Source: a virus
Lineage: Duplodnaviria; Heunggongvirae; Uroviricota; Caudoviricetes
Reading direction: 5' to 3' (one strand)
DNA: 26,102 bases
Virus record (IMG/VR): IMGVR_UViG_2529292998_000006
The notes under the pieces are model-generated. The model saw only the letters and a program-made list of their open reading frames with translations, made no database searches and was not told the origin of the DNA. The position numbers and the translations under genes were made by a program. Positions 1,422 through 22,795 of the stretch are shown here, one piece after another; position 1 is the first letter of the stretch; each line of letters opens with the position of its first letter.

Positions 1422-3893
1422 TTAAAAATCAGCCTGATTTGGGATCAGTTTTTGCCAGATAGCTGAAACGTATTTTGCCTGGTAACGGGCGTCATCAAGT
1501 GCATTATGGCGCTCACCTTCGAATGGAATAGCCGTTCTGGCATCGAAGTCTATGGCTTTCCCCAGCTCAACGATTGTGCGTACATCGCGATCGTTGTAGT
1601 AACGCCACGGGCAGGGGATCCCCTGCCGTTCGTATGAACGGCGCAAAATCGTGTTGTCGAAGTTGGCTCCATTTCCCCAAACCTGAACAAAAAATTCACC
1701 GGAGTTTTCGTCGATAAATTCCCGCAATTGTAACAGTGCATCATCTAACGGGATTTCATCGGTCATAATGGCAGATTGCGCTTCGCGTGATTGCTTAAGC
1801 CACCATTTAATGGTGTCCCGATCAATGACTCCGCCAGCAGTTTCCAGATCGATAGTCTTACTAAATTCCGGTCCCATATCTCCGGTTTGCGGATCGAAAA
1901 ATATTGCACCTATTGAGATGATCGGGGCATCAGGATTTTTTCCCATGGTTTCAAGGTCGATCATTAGATGGTCACACGTCCTGCTGGTGGATGTGATTTC
2001 GTGATGACCGTTCACCTTAATTGAGTGATCTGCCGTCTCGCCAGTTTCATTATCGCTATCGTGATGCTGATTGCCGCCAGTGTTCTCCTTGTGTGGATGT
2101 TCAGCGCCTTCCATTTCCTCCGGATCATCTTCCTGAACTTCAGGCTGATACTCTTCATCGAATGTTTCCTGGTATGTTGCGTCGCCCATTACCGCGCCAC
2201 AATCAGGGCAGTTGCCGCCGCCGGTCTGACCGCAGGCGGTGCAGACTTTTTCCACTTCCTGTTGCGCCACTGATTCAGGCTGTTTCGTTTCTGGCTCGTT
2301 TTGTAACGCATTTGGGCTGTTTTGTTCCGCTTTCTGGTCGTTCTGTTCCGTTTCTTGCTGGTTCTGGTTCACAGAATCGCGGGTCTGGTTCCCCTTAACC
2401 CATTTCGGATCATTCGGGTCGCTAATCCCTTCAACAAATTCACCACGTGATACTGCAAGCAGTTCATCGGCGTCAGGCTGGCTGATATTGGCTGCCTGCA
2501 TAATTTTGTTTACTTCGTCAGCGGTAACTTTTACTGACCCTGGTTGTGCGGTCGTGTCAGATGCACCAGTATTTTGTTGTGAACCTGAGTATGTACCGTT
2601 TTTGCGGGCGAAATATTCTTCTTTCGTGATTTCAGTAGCCCCAGCAGACAGCGCCTTATCCAGACCAGAAAGTTTGTTTGCGCGACCGTATTTTTCGCCA
2701 TCCTTGTCGGTGAAGAGGAAGTAGAACGGCCCCTCACGTTCTACAGATGGTTCGACTTCCACTTTGCATTCGGTTTTTTCGTTGTCCGGAATTGCCGTTT
2801 CCACTGCATCAGTTTCTGGTACTGGCGACGAGAGAGTATCAGTTGCGCTCTGATTTGTTCCTTCATCTTCAAACACGCCCTTTGTAGTCAGGTATTCAGT
2901 AATGTATTTGTTCAGTGCCACAGGGTCTTTGTGAATGTCGATCGGACGTTCACGGACAAGGCCAAAAATAGTCTGGCGGTCGTAGCGAAGGGCATCAGGC
3001 TGTTTGCGCATTGATGCCGAGATACGCTTCCAGTCTTCGCGGTCGTTGTCGATAACTTCATTTTTTGCCCAGCGATGGATGCTGCCGTCAATGTTTCCGG
3101 CATCCACATCACCAGGCCAGAGAGCGTAGGCCAGTTCGTCATCCAGTGTTTTCCATGTCTGCTTGTATTCGCGATGAATGGCAGCAATGACCGGGTTGAT
3201 TTTTCCTGTTGAATTTTCAGTGTGCTGTTGATTGGCTCTGGCGCGGGCGAGATCAACAACAGACGTGTATTTTCCGGCTTCCTTGCGTTCACCTTCGCGA
3301 CGTTTTTTCCAGATGTGCATCTCTGCCTGAATTTCGGGCCATTTGGCACCAGGCTTACATTTATGCTTAACCCACCCGATGGCATGCAGCTTAAGCTCCG
3401 GATACATGGCGTTAACTTCTGGCATTTTCATCAACGCTTCAACGATATGTCCGTCGAATGTTGCCATGTCTTCCTGCAACAGTTCCTGCGCGCTAATCAC
3501 CATATCAACGGTGATGTTTTCACATGTGTCGAACTTAACCATGACAGCGTTCTGTACTTCAGGGGCCAGCTTGTCAAAAGTGACGTTCATCGGATCTGAT
3601 TCAGTCTCAACCGGGACAAAGGAAGCAGACGCCTCATCCCAGCGGTTTTCCTGCATATATTCAGCATCCCAGGAATCTAGGGCAGGGCGGGGTATACCGG
3701 GTTTATCCTCGCAGACAAGAAATTTATAAGCGCAGTCCTGAGCAGCCGGATAATGTTCCAGGAATTGCCAGTGAAATTTTGCGCGGGCGCGACGTTCATC
3801 ACCGGCTTCAATGGCAGTGGCTACAGCGACTGCACCTTCTTCCTTTATTGCCTGTTCGTCCGGAATGGCGGCGCAAATAAAGACTTTACTCAT
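1422..3893 (-). CDS. ydfE: Prophage exonuclease (823 aa, YdfE / 'exodeoxyribonuclease VIII'-like) with a C-terminal DnaQ-like DEDDh 3'-5' exonuclease domain
   Basis: ATG start. C-terminal motifs DLETMG (Exo I), WGNGANFDN (Exo II) and HNALDDARY (Exo III, H-x4-D). Central acidic Q/E/N-rich low-complexity linker containing a CxxC...CxxC motif (VCTACGQTGGGNCPDCG). N-terminus matches my memory of K-12 YdfE, which is interrupted in K-12 and appears full length here. Confidence 0.8.
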   Translation of the reverse strand: MSKVFICAAIPDEQAIKEEGAVAVATAIEAGDERRARAKFHWQFLEHYPAAQDCAYKFLVCEDKPGIPRPALDSWDAEYMQENRWDEASASFVPVETESDPMNVTFDKLAPEVQNAVMVKFDTCENITVDMVISAQELLQEDMATFDGHIVEALMKMPEVNAMYPELKLHAIGWVKHKCKPGAKWPEIQAEMHIWKKRREGERKEAGKYTSVVDLARARANQQHTENSTGKINPVIAAIHREYKQTWKTLDDELAYALWPGDVDAGNIDGSIHRWAKNEVIDNDREDWKRISASMRKQPDALRYDRQTIFGLVRERPIDIHKDPVALNKYITEYLTTKGVFEDEGTNQSATDTLSSPVPETDAVETAIPDNEKTECKVEVEPSVEREGPFYFLFTDKDGEKYGRANKLSGLDKALSAGATEITKEEYFARKNGTYSGSQQNTGASDTTAQPGSVKVTADEVNKIMQAANISQPDADELLAVSRGEFVEGISDPNDPKWVKGNQTRDSVNQNQQETEQNDQKAEQNSPNALQNEPETKQPESVAQQEVEKVCTACGQTGGGNCPDCGAVMGDATYQETFDEEYQPEVQEDDPEEMEGAEHPHKENTGGNQHHDSDNETGETADHSIKVNGHHEITSTSRTCDHLMIDLETMGKNPDAPIISIGAIFFDPQTGDMGPEFSKTIDLETAGGVIDRDTIKWWLKQSREAQSAIMTDEIPLDDALLQLREFIDENSGEFFVQVWGNGANFDNTILRRSYERQGIPCPWRYYNDRDVRTIVELGKAIDFDARTAIPFEGERHNALDDARYQAKYVSAIWQKLIPNQADF

Positions 3894-4177: not shown

Positions 4178-4362
4178 TGTGCACATCCTTTTTGTATCGG
4201 ACGTAAACGGGCCAGCATTGAAAGAATGCATATTTTATTTAATAACTCCCGTTCGTGTTTTCTCTTGTTAATGGCATCTTCAGTAAATACAGGGTTACTG
4301 ATAGTGACACCAATTTCAAAACAACCTTCAGACGTATTAACGTTTGGTAATAACGTTTCCAT
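4174..4362 (-). CDS. dicB: Cell-division inhibitor DicB (62 aa)
   Basis: Protein METLLPNVNTSEGCFEIGVTISNPVFTEDAINKRK...KGCAQ matches recalled DicB nearly end to end. Lies immediately downstream of the DicF sequence. Confidence 0.9.
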   Translation of the reverse strand: METLLPNVNTSEGCFEIGVTISNPVFTEDAINKRKHERELLNKICILSMLARLRPIQKGCAQ

Positions 4363-4540
4363 TATCGCGTCCTCAACAATGAATTTTGTGATGCAGTGCC
4401 TGGTGCCTCCAGGTGACGTTAACCAGTTAACAATTAACGCCGGGTTAGTTGATGCTCGTTACGCCCGTAAAATACCGCCTTACTGCTTTAACTGTTCCGC
4501 GTGCGCTCAGCCGCATTCACCACATCACAAAATTCACTTT

Positions 4541-4598
4541 AAAAAGGGCGGCAGAGCAGTCACGGAGTAAAACTGATACCGCCAAAAGTCACCAGAAA
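4541..4598 (-). ncRNA. dicF: DicF small regulatory RNA with intrinsic terminator
   Basis: Minus-strand sequence UUUCUGGUGACUUUUGGCGGUAUCAGUUUUACUCCGUGACUGCUCUGCCGCCCUUUUU matches recalled DicF. It ends in a GGCGG...CCGCC hairpin followed by a U-run. Confidence 0.85.
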
Positions 4599-4930
4599 AT
4601 TGATAACAGAGGGCGTTGCAGCGGAGTTGTCACTTAAGCGTATGGTCAACCTGACAACCCGGTGTCCTCAACGGGGGAAGGAATAACCCCGCCATACTTA
4701 CCGCCGCGCCATTTCGCGGAGTGCCACAACCGGAAGCGCACGGTCGAACTAAATTTAACGACACCGTACAGAGAGACCAATTTCGCCGTGCGCTTTCGCT
4801 TTATGCCCTGACTTTTCAGGGACATATCCTTTCAGTAAACTGTCAGTGCCGGATGTTCACCCGTGTCCGGCGCACGCACTCCACCTGACCCGTGGAGAAC
4901 TCCTTAATTACCAACCCTCAGGAGGGTGAA

Positions 4931-5209
4931 ATGGATAAAAAGCAAATTGAGGCCCTGCAATCTATTATTGAAAAACAAGATGAAGCTATCAGGATTCTTT
5001 CATATCGCACTGATATGATACTAAATATGCTTTCTGCATTAACGGCTGCGCTTGGTGGTACAAAAACAAACGTATACCGCGAAGTTGTTATTCAACAGAT
5101 AGATAAATTTGAAAAAACCATACCAGGTATTAATGCTCATCTTGCAGAACAAGAGAAAGACCATGCTCTTATGGCAATTTCTTCAGTAGCTCTCCCGAAA
5201 GTTGAGTAG
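4931..5209 (+). CDS. Hypothetical protein (92 aa), opposite strand to the surrounding operon
   Basis: ATG at 4931 preceded by AGGAGGG. The longer GTG-initiated ORF from 4892 is less likely. Coiled-coil-like N-terminus, no recognisable domain. Its 3' end overlaps the 3' end of the 133-aa minus-strand gene by 41 nt. Confidence 0.45.
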   Translation: MDKKQIEALQSIIEKQDEAIRILSYRTDMILNMLSALTAALGGTKTNVYREVVIQQIDKFEKTIPGINAHLAEQEKDHALMAISSVALPKVE

Positions 5210-5570
5210 TTTTAATTGTTGTTTTGAAATAATCACTGCTTTCACATTTGAGTGATTTCATGGCAATCCAAATGCGGGCCTCTGTGCCTGCATTTGGTTC
5301 CAGTTGCTGTAGACGTTTTGCGTCTTCCAAAAGTAAGGCGATAATGTGTTTCAGCTTCTCATCATTTGCTTGATTCTTGTTTTCAGGCGAATTCTGTCCG
5401 CCGAATAGGCGCTTCTCTTCATACAGACCTATAAAGGCACGACGCACGTTACCGGATATAGTATCGATGGTTTCCTTTTCTACAGTACTCAGGTCAAGAG
5501 TCGCCAGTTGAGAGCGAACCACATTCGCTGCCATTTCCTGGAATGGCATTGGTAAATCTTTAAATTCCAT
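5169..5570 (-). CDS. Hypothetical protein (133 aa) within the dicB operon
   Basis: ATG start with GAGG 7 nt upstream. Same strand as ydfC and dicB, between them. No recognisable motif. I do not recall it in the K-12 dicB operon. Confidence 0.55.
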   Translation of the reverse strand: MEFKDLPMPFQEMAANVVRSQLATLDLSTVEKETIDTISGNVRRAFIGLYEEKRLFGGQNSPENKNQANDEKLKHIIALLLEDAKRLQQLEPNAGTEARIWIAMKSLKCESSDYFKTTIKTTQLSGELLKKLP

Positions 5571-5592
5571 TATTAGCCTCGTTGGTTAGCTA

Positions 5593-5811
5593 TTAACGTG
5601 GGTATGTAACCATTCTGGCAATGCTTAATGCCGCTGCTTTTTCCAGCCTGGTGATATCCTGCTCCAGAGCGGACAGATTTTCAGCCTGCTTAGTCCTGGC
5701 TTCATTGGCCCATTTCAGATCCTGCACTGCATTAATTTTCTGGCGCATCCACTCATAAAGTTCATCATCGGTATAGTCTGGCGCGATGATGACGGGTTCT
5801 CGTTTCTGCAT
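5593..5811 (-). CDS. ydfC: YdfC-like protein (72 aa)
   Basis: 72-aa ATG-started ORF in the expected position and of the expected size downstream of ydfB. Confidence 0.65.
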   Translation of the reverse strand: MQKREPVIIAPDYTDDELYEWMRQKINAVQDLKWANEARTKQAENLSALEQDITRLEKAAALSIARMVTYPR

Positions 5812-5840
5812 ACTGATTCCTCGCGGTGCTGTTTCGCTTA

Positions 5841-5969
5841 TCAGCCGTTAGATTTTGCCGAACTGGAAAGCGCCTGTTTAAATTCACTGAAGCTGAGAGC
5901 TTCTTCGCCTTCGGCAAGACCATCGAAGTATTCTTCGTAAGCCTTTTCCATGATTGTGTCGAAATCCAT
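5841..5969 (-). CDS. ydfB: YdfB-like small protein (42 aa)
   Basis: Hand translation of the minus strand gives MDFDTIMEKAYEEYFDGLAEGEEALSFSEFKQALSSSAKSNG. Its start overlaps the ydfA stop (GTGAGTGATATG). Not in the ORF track because it is under 60 aa. Confidence 0.7.
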   Translation of the reverse strand: MDFDTIMEKAYEEYFDGLAEGEEALSFSEFKQALSSSAKSNG

Positions 5970-11284: not shown

Positions 11285-11521
11285 TTTTATGGATCACCTT
11301 TCTGATTGATTTCATATTGGCGAGGTGACGTGAGTTAAGTAGAATGGCTGCGGGTGCTTGAGGCTATCTGTCTCAGGCATGAACACTGAAAGGCAGATAG
11401 AGAAAAGCCCCAGTTAACATTTCGCGTCCTGCAAGACGCTTAACATTAATCTGAGGCCCAATCTATGTCTCACAAATGTAGGTTAGCCTCTTACGTGCCG
11501 AAAGGCAAGGGGAAGCAGGCT

Positions 11522-11677
11522 ATGAAGCAGCAAAAGGCGATGTTAATCGCCCTGATCGTCATCTGTTTAACCGTCATAGTGACGGCACTGGTAACGAGGA
11601 AAGACCTCTGCGAGGTACGAATCCGAACCGGCCAGACGGAGGTCGCTGTCTTCACAGCTTACGAACCTGAGGAGTAA
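11522..11677 (+). CDS. hokD: Hok-family membrane toxin HokD/RelF (51 aa)
   Basis: MKQQKAMLIALIVICLTVIVTALVTRKDLCEVRIRTGQTEVAVFTAYEPEE. The track ORF from 11465 extends it in frame, which I take to be an artefact. Confidence 0.85.
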   Translation: MKQQKAMLIALIVICLTVIVTALVTRKDLCEVRIRTGQTEVAVFTAYEPEE

Positions 11678-14941: not shown

Positions 14942-15241
14942 AAAAATTCCTTAATACTGATAACTTGGCGCACTATACACACGTTCCTGAAGAAAGCTAT
15001 AGTTTTTTGATGGGGTTGAAGATGGCTGGATGTCTAAAATAAACATTGCTTCATATGTTCAACTATGCGTTAATGATTGCGTCGGTTTGAAGAACAGACG
15101 ATATACGAAGTAGTTTACTAAAGCAGTTCTCATTTCAGGTGTTATTCACTTATTCCTTCTTTGAGTCTCTCCAATTAAGTACGAAGTCGTTTCTGTTATG
15201 CAAACCATTTATGCCGAAAGGCTCAAGTTAAGGAATGTAGA

Positions 15242-15457
15242 ATGTCAAATAAAATGACTGGTTTAGTAAAATGGTTTAACGCTGATAAAGGTTTCGGCTT
15301 TATTTCTCCTGTTGATGGTAGTAAAGATGTGTTTGTGCATTTTTCTGCGATTCAGAATGATAATTATCGAACCTTATTTGAAGGTCAAAAGGTTACCTTC
15401 TCTATAGAGAGTGGTGCTAAAGGTCCTGCAGCAGCAAATGTCATCATTACTGATTAA
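15242..15457 (+). CDS. cspB: Cold-shock protein CspB (71 aa)
   Basis: [71 protein letters not shown]. Divergent from cspF with a long 5' leader. Confidence 0.9.
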
Positions 15458-15739
15458 AATTCATCGCTCGTCTGTATACGATAACGAAGAAGGCTGATGC
15501 CTGAGTAGAGATACGGACAGAGTAGTGAATATTGGATCTCTTTAATAAAAAGTAAGGAGGTCCAATACATGAAACAATGGCTAGCATATTTGGCAAAATC
15601 TTAATCAGGAAAAGTATGCTAACCATTGTGGTGAAGTGCAGGTTTGCTGCATGAATAGTTTTACAGCAGAAGCTAACTGCTGGCATGGCAAAACAAAGTG
15701 CGTAAGTGGATGACTCCCACAAAAAGCACCACAATCTCA

Positions 15740-17766: not shown

Positions 17767-18128
17767 GGTAATATTAAATCGGAACATTTACATCGCGGAA
17801 TGTAAAATTTAAATAAAAAGGACTCTTCCATGAGCCAAAATTCCTGAAATCTTAAGGGTAAGATAAAAGGTCTTAATCAGAATGACACGTTTTATTAATA
17901 AATAAAGCTATTCTTTCATTGCTGTGTTTTTCTTTACAAAAGTAATCCTTGCTATGGGTGGTTAATCATGCGTTAATGGTGTTCTGGTTTGTTACAAATT
18001 TATCTGAAGCAGTCATTGTTATAATTTTATTATTTGTACCTCTTGAGATTTCCTTGTTGGTTTTTCTCTCTGATATTTTTTTTCGGACCATTCTGCCCAA
18101 GGGCTAATTTCTTCAAAAGGTAATAATT

Positions 18129-18341
18129 ATGTCTAACAAAATGACTGGTTTAGTGAAATGGTTTAACCCTGAAAAAGGTTTTGGTTTCATCACGCCGAAA
18201 GATGGCAGCAAAGATGTGTTTGTCCATTTCTCAGCAATTCAGAGCAACGATTTCAAAACATTAACTGAGAATCAGGAAGTTGAATTTGGTATTGAGAACG
18301 GACCTAAAGGTCCTGCCGCTGTTCATGTAGTGGCGCTTTGA
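18129..18341 (+). CDS. cspI: Cold-shock protein CspI (70 aa)
   Basis: [70 protein letters not shown], with a long AT-rich 5' leader. Confidence 0.9.
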
Positions 18342-18544
18342 GGTAGACAATATTACAAACCATATTCACTTTAGATGCCCGTGTTGTCATGGTTCCCAGT
18401 ATAGAACATCATCTTTTGATGTTTCTGACATGAATCCTTTCGGGGCAAAATGTATCTTTTGTAAATCAATGATGATTACATTTGATAATATTTCACAATA
18501 CTTAAATGCCAGCCGTCTGTCGTTGGATTTAAAAAAGTGAAAAT

Positions 18545-22220: not shown

Positions 22221-22795
22221 TGGCATTCAGAATGAGTGAACAACCACGGACCATAAAAATTTATAATCTGCTGGCCGGAACTAATGAATTTATTGGTGAA
22301 GGTGACGCATATATTCCGCCTCATACAGGTCTGCCAGCAAACAGTACCGATATTGCACCGCCAGATATTCCGGCAGGCTTCGTGGCTGTTTTCAACAGTG
22401 ATGAGGCATCGTGGCATCTCGTTGAAGATCATCGGGGTAAAACGGTTTATGACGTGGCTTCCGGCGACGCGTTATTTATTTCTGAACTCGGTCCGTTACC
22501 GGAAAATGTTACCTGGTTATCGCCGGGAGGGGAATATCAGAAGTGGAACGGCACAGCCTGGGTGAAGGATACGGAAGCAGAAAAACTGTTCCGGATCCGG
22601 GAGGCGGAAGAAACAAAAAACAGCCTGATGCAGATAGCCAGTGAGCATATAGCGCCGCTTCAGGATGCTGTGGATCTGGAGATCGCAACGGAGGAAGAAA
22701 CCTTGTTGCTGGAAGCCTGGAAAAAGTATCGGGTGTTGCTGAACCGTGTTGATACATCAACTGCACCGGATATTGAATGGCCAGCACTGCCGTAG
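22220..22795 (+). CDS. tfaQ: Tail fibre assembly protein (191 aa)
   Basis: ATG overlaps the stf stop (TAATG). 191-aa Tfa-like protein located next to a Pin invertase. Confidence 0.85.

Follow-up and report, generated by a model that had tools for sequence, protein, structure and literature searches.

Anatomy of the ydfC-dicF segment

The 26,102-nucleotide (nt) stretch analyzed here over its whole length, referred to below as the window, is the virus record IMGVR_UViG_2529292998_000006 of IMG/VR and carries a Qin/Rac-like lambdoid prophage with its early-left (dicB) operon on the minus strand. Within this operon, between ydfC and the gene for the small RNA (sRNA) DicF, a 92-amino-acid (aa) open reading frame (ORF) on the plus strand converges on a 133-aa ORF on the operon strand, and a GC-rich spacer lies between the 92-aa ORF and dicF (Table 1). 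In the 98%-identical locus of Escherichia coli 118UI, the ORFs follow one another as a DicA-like repressor, DUF1391 (ydfA), ydfB, ydfC, a 133-aa hypothetical protein (minus strand), a 92-aa hypothetical protein (plus strand), dicB, DUF1482 (ydfD), and an exonuclease; the annotation of that locus by the Prokaryotic Genome Annotation Pipeline (PGAP) gives no dicF feature. An initial annotation, made from the letters of the window alone, had placed the two ORFs, their 41-nt overlap, and a Shine-Dalgarno (SD) sequence, AGGAGGG, and these coordinates were verified, with the SD sequence at 4920-4926, 4 nt 5′ of the ATG of the 92-aa ORF. The two inverted repeats that it had picked out in the spacer are likewise present, GCCGGA-N12-TCCGGC at 4848-4871 and GCGCACGG...CCGTGCGC at 4736-4793. 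The GC content is 0.52-0.58 over 4575-4874, as against 0.33-0.41 in the 92-aa gene.

Alignment with E. coli K-12 MG1655 delimits the insertion with clean breakpoints. Window positions 4300-4916 are 90% identical to K-12 and positions 5573-5900 are 96% identical, and the two corresponding K-12 segments are adjacent. The DNA that is extra relative to K-12 therefore amounts to the 656 bp from 4917 to 5572, containing the SD sequence, the 92-aa gene, and the 133-aa gene, rather than the approximately 1 kb first supposed. That an insertion relative to K-12 carries an opposite-strand gene is borne out by this alignment; that positions 4599-4916 form part of it is not. The latter stretch is the 340-nt ydfC-dicF untranslated region of K-12, with which it shares approximately 90-93% identity and to which it is collinear on the operon strand, directly before the 5′ end of dicF. 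Published work places dicF within this long untranslated region, which RNase E and RNase III process (PMC5069750). Because K-12 and all of the 128 DicF-bearing stretches surveyed below have the ydfC-dicF untranslated region, GC-rich positions 4599-4916 fall outside the insertion. The difference lies at the distal end of the region, which in the window runs on into an SD sequence and an opposite-strand ORF, whereas K-12 retains the spacer up to 4916 and has neither. Among 5426 complete E. coli genomes, 4730 have matches to the DicF region and 124 have the whole 656-bp segment at ≥80% coverage; 1688 have parts of the segment, predominantly the first third of the 133-aa gene at its 5′ end.

Table 1. 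Features of the ydfC-dicF segment and its flanks (positions in the window)
Feature	Position	Strand	Basis
DicF sRNA gene	4546-4597	-	Rfam RF00039, 75.8 bits, E 2.6e-15
DicF-proximal ydfC-dicF untranslated region (DicF precursor leader)	4599-4800	-	Present in K-12 and all 128 DicF loci
Distal spacer, proposed shared 5′ leader (platform A)	4801-4930	+	Same sequence up to the ATG before four unrelated ORFs
Segment absent from K-12 Qin	4917-5572 (656 bp)		blastn breakpoints and alignment
92-aa gene (phrog_18692; RefSeq WP_000358769.1)	4931-5209	+	PGAP coding sequence; PHROG match 5.9e-63; antisense to dicBF operon
Convergent 3′ overlap of the 92-aa and 133-aa genes (41 nt)	5169-5209		ORF coordinates
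133-aa operon-strand gene (phrog_1363; WP_000394529.1)	5169-5570	-	Three-part mosaic; PHROG domain split
ydfC, last K-12-type gene ahead of the insertion	5593-5811	-	PGAP annotation of the 98%-identical locus and K-12 alignment

An exchangeable antisense slot and its leaders

The site just past the distal end of the spacer is a slot in which small antisense genes, here termed cargo, are exchanged. In the 128 DicF loci, the slot is empty and K-12-like in 51 and holds an antisense ORF in 31, and these ORFs are joined exactly at their ATG to one of two conserved, SD-bearing leaders. Platform A, which ends in ...CTCCACCTGACCCGTGGAGAACTCCTTAATTACCAACCCTCAGGAGGGTGAA-ATG and is present in 19 of the loci, precedes ORFs of 92, 73, 77, and 91 aa; platform B, which ends in ...CTCAATGGAGGATAAA-ATG and is present in 12, precedes ORFs of 64, 69, 94, and 61 aa as well as a 57-aa ORF. 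The last of these occupies locus L009, where it stands in place of the 92-aa gene between the same flanks. At least eight cargo families are represented, and the ORFs that start at a platform ATG give end-to-end matches to PHROGs of unknown function. The 92-aa family has a remote homologue in the same slot, the 91-aa cargo (hhalign, 96.3%), and is therefore diversifying in place. The 656-bp indel relative to K-12, together with the empty and occupied slots, constitutes the presence or absence in collinear phages that marks a moron, and the same counts support the initial annotation in its view of this region as a cargo hotspot, the cargo at this site being exchangeable.

Antisense ORFs are also found at other junctions, among them a 106-aa membrane protein (13 loci) and a 66-aa protein (8 loci). 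The 106-aa ORF, from the IMG/VR loci of the L021 group, has clear hydrophobic segments (MSQPPINPLKNMKIDYWYKALTVVGAALFV...) and is by composition the most SieB-like of the cargo proteins; it has no match in Pfam, PHROG, or PADLOC. Of the platform-borne ORFs, the 94-aa cargo of L108 (IMG/VR) matches the Pfam family GhoS at 21.2 bits, against a cut-off of 21. In the type V GhoT/GhoS system, GhoS is the endoribonuclease that serves as antitoxin; a GhoT-like partner was not noticed beside the GhoS-like ORF in L108.

The initial annotation had read the whole of 4599-4930 as a leader of the 92-aa gene with stem-forming repeats. Taken as a long structured cis-regulatory leader RNA, riboswitch-like or thermosensor-like, this proposal fares differently at the two ends of the spacer. 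At the distal end it can be retained in part. Because unrelated ORFs are fused to it exactly at the ATG, the last 50-130 nt or so of the spacer (about 4800-4930, with the SD sequence) plausibly serves as the shared 5′ leader of the antisense cargo. This part includes hairpins at 4848-4871 and 4879-4897, and in both platforms the SD sequence can pair with a complementary stretch upstream; in platform A, either CUCCU at 4900-4904 or CCCUC at 4915-4919 can pair with AGGAGGG at 4920-4926. The conservation of the leader up to the ATG over unrelated cargo and this potential masking in both leader types both fit a cis-regulatory leader, as does the folding of the GC-rich stretch on the plus strand, which is better than that of shuffled sequences (z = -4.3). 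The minus strand also folds better than shuffled sequences (z = -2.8).

The DicF-proximal part behaves otherwise. Its ~210 nt (4599-~4800) are found in every one of the DicF loci, with or without cargo, and are kept even where the distal part and its cargo have been replaced; K-12 and the 51 loci with an empty slot have 4599-4916 and no cargo gene at all. The sequence is near-invariant except for two hypervariable hairpin tips, at about 4654-4683 and 4762-4784. At least eight tip sequences are carried on one conserved 12-14-bp stem, and at the other tip an alternative hairpin has been substituted wholesale; these tips might be sites that a nuclease or a protein recognizes, or else scars of recombination.

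In an RNAalifold analysis of 45 diverse leaders, 66 pairs were predicted, several of them invariant G.U pairs on the operon strand, and many one-sided changes stay paired only on that strand. The alternative hairpin, too, is stable on the operon strand only (-12.6 versus -5.3 kcal/mol). Two-sided compensatory changes were seen in none of the 66 pairs and hence lend no covariation support to a structured leader RNA, and in an Rfam scan of the whole window the sole family matched in the region of 4599-4930 was DicF, so that neither route assigns the spacer to a known structured RNA family of its own. The structural evidence for 4599-~4800 thus consists of conservation and strand asymmetry rather than covariation. 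Taken together, these comparisons of sequence make a long leader RNA for the 92-aa gene quite improbable, and positions 4599-~4800 are best read as part of the DicF precursor.

The 92-aa gene and its convergent neighbor

The 92-aa ORF is annotated as a coding sequence by PGAP and belongs to a PHROG of unknown function. Comparison with its Salmonella homologues by the Nei-Gojobori method yields ratios of nonsynonymous to synonymous substitution (dN/dS) of 0.08-0.25 at dS of 0.7-1.0, and of 0.04-0.07 in an invariant core (aa 25-57) that lies partly outside the overlap with the 133-aa gene. Because dN/dS is far below 1 at saturated synonymous sites, the ORF is, on its substitution pattern, a genuine gene under purifying selection, as the initial annotation had proposed. 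The narrow taxonomic range of the family, the lack of domain matches, and the lack of a consensus promoter would suit a chance antisense reading frame. That explanation is already refuted by the dN/dS values, and a length of 90-93 aa, a helix pattern, and conserved motifs that are all kept in full-length homologues at 33-45% identity, along with a strong SD sequence at ideal spacing, leave it barely conceivable.

The family itself is, as judged from these searches, tiny and restricted to enterobacterial prophages. It comprises 22 clusters at 90% identity from E. coli and Salmonella, and a profile hidden Markov model search of 1.84 billion representatives recovered 13 members, none of which is an annotated relative. 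The remark in the initial annotation that neither protein shows a nameable motif holds: searches of Pfam, NCBIfam, and PADLOC with both proteins returned no family, PHROG returned families of unknown function only, and sequence searches of the PDB gave no match. An AlphaFold (AF2) model built on an alignment of eight sequences predicts a three-helix bundle (residues 3-41, 48-58, and 69-84) with a predicted local distance difference test score (pLDDT) of 80.4 and a predicted template-modeling score (pTM) of 0.63; with five sequences the model was poor (pLDDT of 65).

The genomic surroundings of the homologues are alike. They always lie opposite the early-left operon strand or converge on a CI-type repressor or an integrase. 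The Salmonella homologues converge on a 71-aa gene with an identical 41-nt overlap, and the homologue of a P2-like prophage (45% protein identity) overlaps a 214-aa helix-turn-helix (HTH) gene by 41 nt; in two other phages the homologue is directed at a CI/S24 repressor gene, and in one phage it adjoins the integrase. Terminator-like plus-strand hairpins are found directly 3′ of distant homologues, and in L018 a good PL-like promoter faces the homologue. In the Salmonella prophage of L006, an extra 119-aa plus-strand ORF (4361-4720 of that locus) lies in the distal spacer 5′ of the homologue, the C-terminus of the homologue is replaced, and a ParE/Phd pair is located nearby.

The 133-aa protein is a mosaic of an N-terminal domain (aa 1-62; 5385-5570), a YmfJ-like motif (aa 69-108; 5247-5366), LKHIIALLLEDAKRLQQLEPNAGTEARI, and a C-terminal tail (5172-5234), DYFKTTIKTTQLSGELLKKLP. 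In E. coli prophages, the N-terminal domain is joined to a wide variety of C-termini, and its DNA is present in more than 1,500 E. coli genomes. The YmfJ-like motif is 75% identical to YmfJ of e14 over 40 aa. The proportions of synonymous (pS, 0.28-0.82) and nonsynonymous (pN, 0-0.06) differences within it reveal very strong selection at the level of the protein; conservation of the motif as a nucleic acid hairpin was considered and rejected, pS being far greater than pN. The motif, whose synonymous sites are saturated, also occurs in the Salmonella 71-aa genes and in a stand-alone ORF of 48 aa in L108, and its DNA is common to Cronobacter phage phiES15 and Aeromonas phage pAEv1818. Within the 133-aa gene, at 5268-5297 and approximately 60 nt past the stop codon of the 92-aa gene, CCAAATGCGGGC / GTGCCTGCATTTGG forms a perfect 12-bp hairpin; it lacks a T-run and could stop or pause rightward transcripts.

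The initial annotation had suggested that the two ORFs might form a two-gene module. In its strictest form, the 92-aa and 133-aa proteins would be a dedicated two-component system, either toxin-antitoxin (TA)-like or an effector with its cognate regulator, in which the convergent product would be bound at its C-terminal tail by the 92-aa protein and the 41-nt overlap of the mRNAs would couple their expression. The overlap is indeed kept in E. coli, in Salmonella, and in the P2-like prophage at 45% identity. The tail, whose coding sequence spans the 3′ end of the 92-aa gene, has relatives that accompany the 92-aa family over large distances with the motif (D/E)Y..I..TQ(L/I)S.ELL, either as stand-alone ORFs of 55-58 aa (L018 and L019) or fused to the YmfJ-like motif or to an HTH protein. 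A partnership between the proteins could account for this co-occurrence, but so could the codon constraint that the overlapping genes impose on each other. In the antisense frame, the wobble base of each gene faces the second codon base of the other, so the conservation of one tail forces that of the other.

Other observations bear on the same question. Cargo types and sense-gene types are reshuffled between loci, which argues against an obligate two-gene module, and strict linkage between cargo and sense gene was rejected on these grounds; the 133-aa gene occurs with a different cargo in L009, and genes with its N-terminal domain occur without cargo in the L047 group. With respect to a TA relationship, the slot also carries elsewhere a GhoS-like ORF of the antitoxin type, and there is a weak RelB-like NCBIfam match (NF048017, E 0.011), although its 15.9 bits fall well short of the cut-off of 50. 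Neither protein has a toxin or antitoxin domain, and the convergent orientation of the partner is atypical for type II TA systems, to which the pair accordingly cannot be assigned. A dedicated two-component system is thus fairly unlikely. What stands of the module is that the C-terminal tail of the 133-aa protein travels with the 92-aa gene; what is weakened is the pairing of the two whole genes.

Elsewhere in the window, Rfam matches were obtained to the sok antitoxin RNA of a hok/sok locus (11352-11527), to two cspA-type thermoregulator leaders of prophage cold-shock genes (15081-15473 and 17983-18368), and to IS009 RNA (22563-22761).

Proposed expression and relation to known systems

The layout of the operon imposes a constraint on its transcription. 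To reach dicF and dicB, the operon transcript must traverse the whole of the 92-aa gene and is hence antisense to the cargo. With the 41-nt coding overlap and this read-through, the segment has the makings of an excludon, that is, convergent genes with necessarily overlapping transcripts. In the favored reading, which is somewhat probable, the 92-aa ORF is an accessory (moron-type) gene that was acquired independently, lies in a recurrent antisense slot of DicF/DicB-type early-left operons, and is expressed in the lysogen in mutual exclusion with dicBF.

The proposed course of events is as follows. While a DicA-like repressor holds dicBF off in the lysogen, a weak promoter in the distal spacer would drive rightward transcription of the 92-aa gene. 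The candidate for this promoter is TTTTCA (4813-4818), a 17-nt spacing, and TAAACT (4836-4841), and transcripts would begin near 4848, where the 4848-4871 hairpin has its foot. On induction of the operon, leftward transcription would run antisense across the entire 92-aa gene, and collision together with RNase III cleavage of the resulting duplex would silence it, such that the cargo and DicF/DicB would be expressed in a mutually exclusive manner. The product, a predicted soluble three-helix bundle, may act by binding another protein, the best candidate partner being the conserved C-terminal tail encoded opposite the 3′ end of its own gene. The outcome would be a function that benefits the lysogen, for example superinfection exclusion; an exclusion-type benefit is a guess and the weakest step of the proposal.

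Several observations weigh against this picture of a lysogen-expressed accessory gene. A promoter scan found no consensus sigma70 promoter on the plus strand upstream of 4931, and the sigma70-like candidate at 4813-4841 matches 8 of 12 positions, which is under the threshold of the scanner; nor did a scan for terminators find one after the 92-aa gene in the window. The 92-aa protein resembles neither SieB nor any defense, toxin, or antitoxin family, comparison of its model with known structures returned generic helical bundles only, and, unlike SieB, it is not obviously membrane bound. The conserved tail of the 133-aa protein, for its part, could be a passive consequence of the antisense coding constraint. 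The Cappable-seq supplements contain no entries for the spacer region of K-12.

The main role of the arrangement might instead reside in the RNA, with the protein secondary. Rightward transcription would then be a safety lock against leaky read-through into dicF, dicB, and ydfD, working by transcriptional interference and antisense RNA. The toxicity of DicF, DicB, and YdfD (PMC5069750; PMC11879457) would give such a lock a purpose, and it agrees both with the excludon precedent and with a convergent arrangement so compact that it has no room for terminators. The cargo proteins, however, are under strong purifying selection in their sequences, the frame set by the shared ATG is maintained in many unrelated ORFs, and many DicF operons manage with the slot empty, which together render a mainly RNA-level role highly improbable.

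The accessory-gene reading can be extended, tentatively, to the slot as a whole. The distal end of the DicF precursor leader may double, on the other strand, as a conserved platform, comprising a promoter, a 5′ hairpin, and a masked SD sequence, for interchangeable small-protein genes of at least 8-12 families whose expression would be the mirror image of that of DicF and DicB. The 92-aa family and the co-encoded tail would in that event make up a previously unrecognized module of two parts, with a role in exclusion or regulation, whose diversification is driven by an arms race. We regard this extension as possible but doubtful.

Most E. coli genomes have DicF/DicB operons, which have been studied for cell-division control, phage resistance, and the virulence of enterohemorrhagic E. 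coli, and the long untranslated region before dicF has been treated as mere spacer. The present analysis corrects the anatomy of the segment (656 bp in place of 1 kb, with a leader common to K-12), establishes the 92-aa ORF as a true gene, and identifies the far end of the spacer as a docking point for exchangeable, antisense, uncharacterized small genes in the position that sieB holds in lambda and Rac. The cargo of the slot provides concrete, testable candidates for exclusion or regulatory proteins expressed in the lysogen, and the slot itself a natural system in which to study how convergent transcription may couple an accessory gene to a toxic sRNA/protein operon.

The closest counterparts in layout are the sieB loci. 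In lambda, sieB (plus strand) abuts N (minus strand), and in Rac (L141, K-12, 2906-3660) sieB (plus strand) overlaps ydaF (minus strand) by 4 nt; in both, as for the 92-aa gene, the antisense gene of the early-left operon is convergent with the preceding operon gene. Rac sieB lies directly upstream of the annotated sRNA KilS and of kilR, just as the 92-aa gene lies upstream of DicF and dicB. Window positions 4378-4584, the 3′ part of DicF and the region downstream, are 74% identical to the KilS region of Rac, and this identity, combined with the same layout, makes KilS look like a positional relative of DicF. The PL transcript of P22 is reported to act as an antisense RNA on sieB mRNA (Ranade and Poteete, Genes Dev 1993), and such coupling is of the kind proposed for the 92-aa gene. 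The proteins, in contrast, are not related. SieB of lambda, P22, and Rac is a membrane-associated protein of ~160-190 aa that has no sequence or family relationship to the 92-aa protein, a predicted soluble bundle, and the latter finds no SieB family in Pfam, NCBIfam, or PADLOC and falls in phrog_18692. Judged by layout and sequence, the 92-aa gene is a new occupant of the "sieB slot" and not a member of the SieB family.

A second counterpart is found in e14, where ymfI (plus strand) and ymfJ (minus strand), next to the repressor gene, are convergent with a 63-nt 3′ overlap, as are the 92-aa and 133-aa genes with theirs. YmfJ shares LKH..EPNAGTEARI with the 133-aa protein and differs from it at the C-terminus; both e14 genes are uncharacterized. 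YmfI was considered as a relative of the 92-aa protein and rejected, the two proteins being unrelated. The ymfI-ymfJ and sieB-ydaF pairs have been described as convergent excludons from RNA-seq of K-12 (PMC12288877).

The DicF slot may also be set beside the moron hotspots, at which unrelated small genes are swapped at a fixed site between conserved flanks, with a GC content unlike that of their neighbors and with presumed expression in the lysogen. Phage accessory hotspots of this kind include old/tin and Z/fun of P2 and the genes that flank immunity cassettes. The cargo of the DicF slot departs from them in being fused at its start codon to a shared leader and SD sequence, apparently in place of a promoter that it would bring along, and in its antisense position inside an operon from which a regulatory sRNA is also made. 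Scans for a canonical promoter and terminator at the 92-aa gene found neither. As an antisense accessory gene within the early-left operon of a lambdoid prophage, the 92-aa gene belongs to a known kind, and what goes beyond that kind is the cargo slot with its shared leader.

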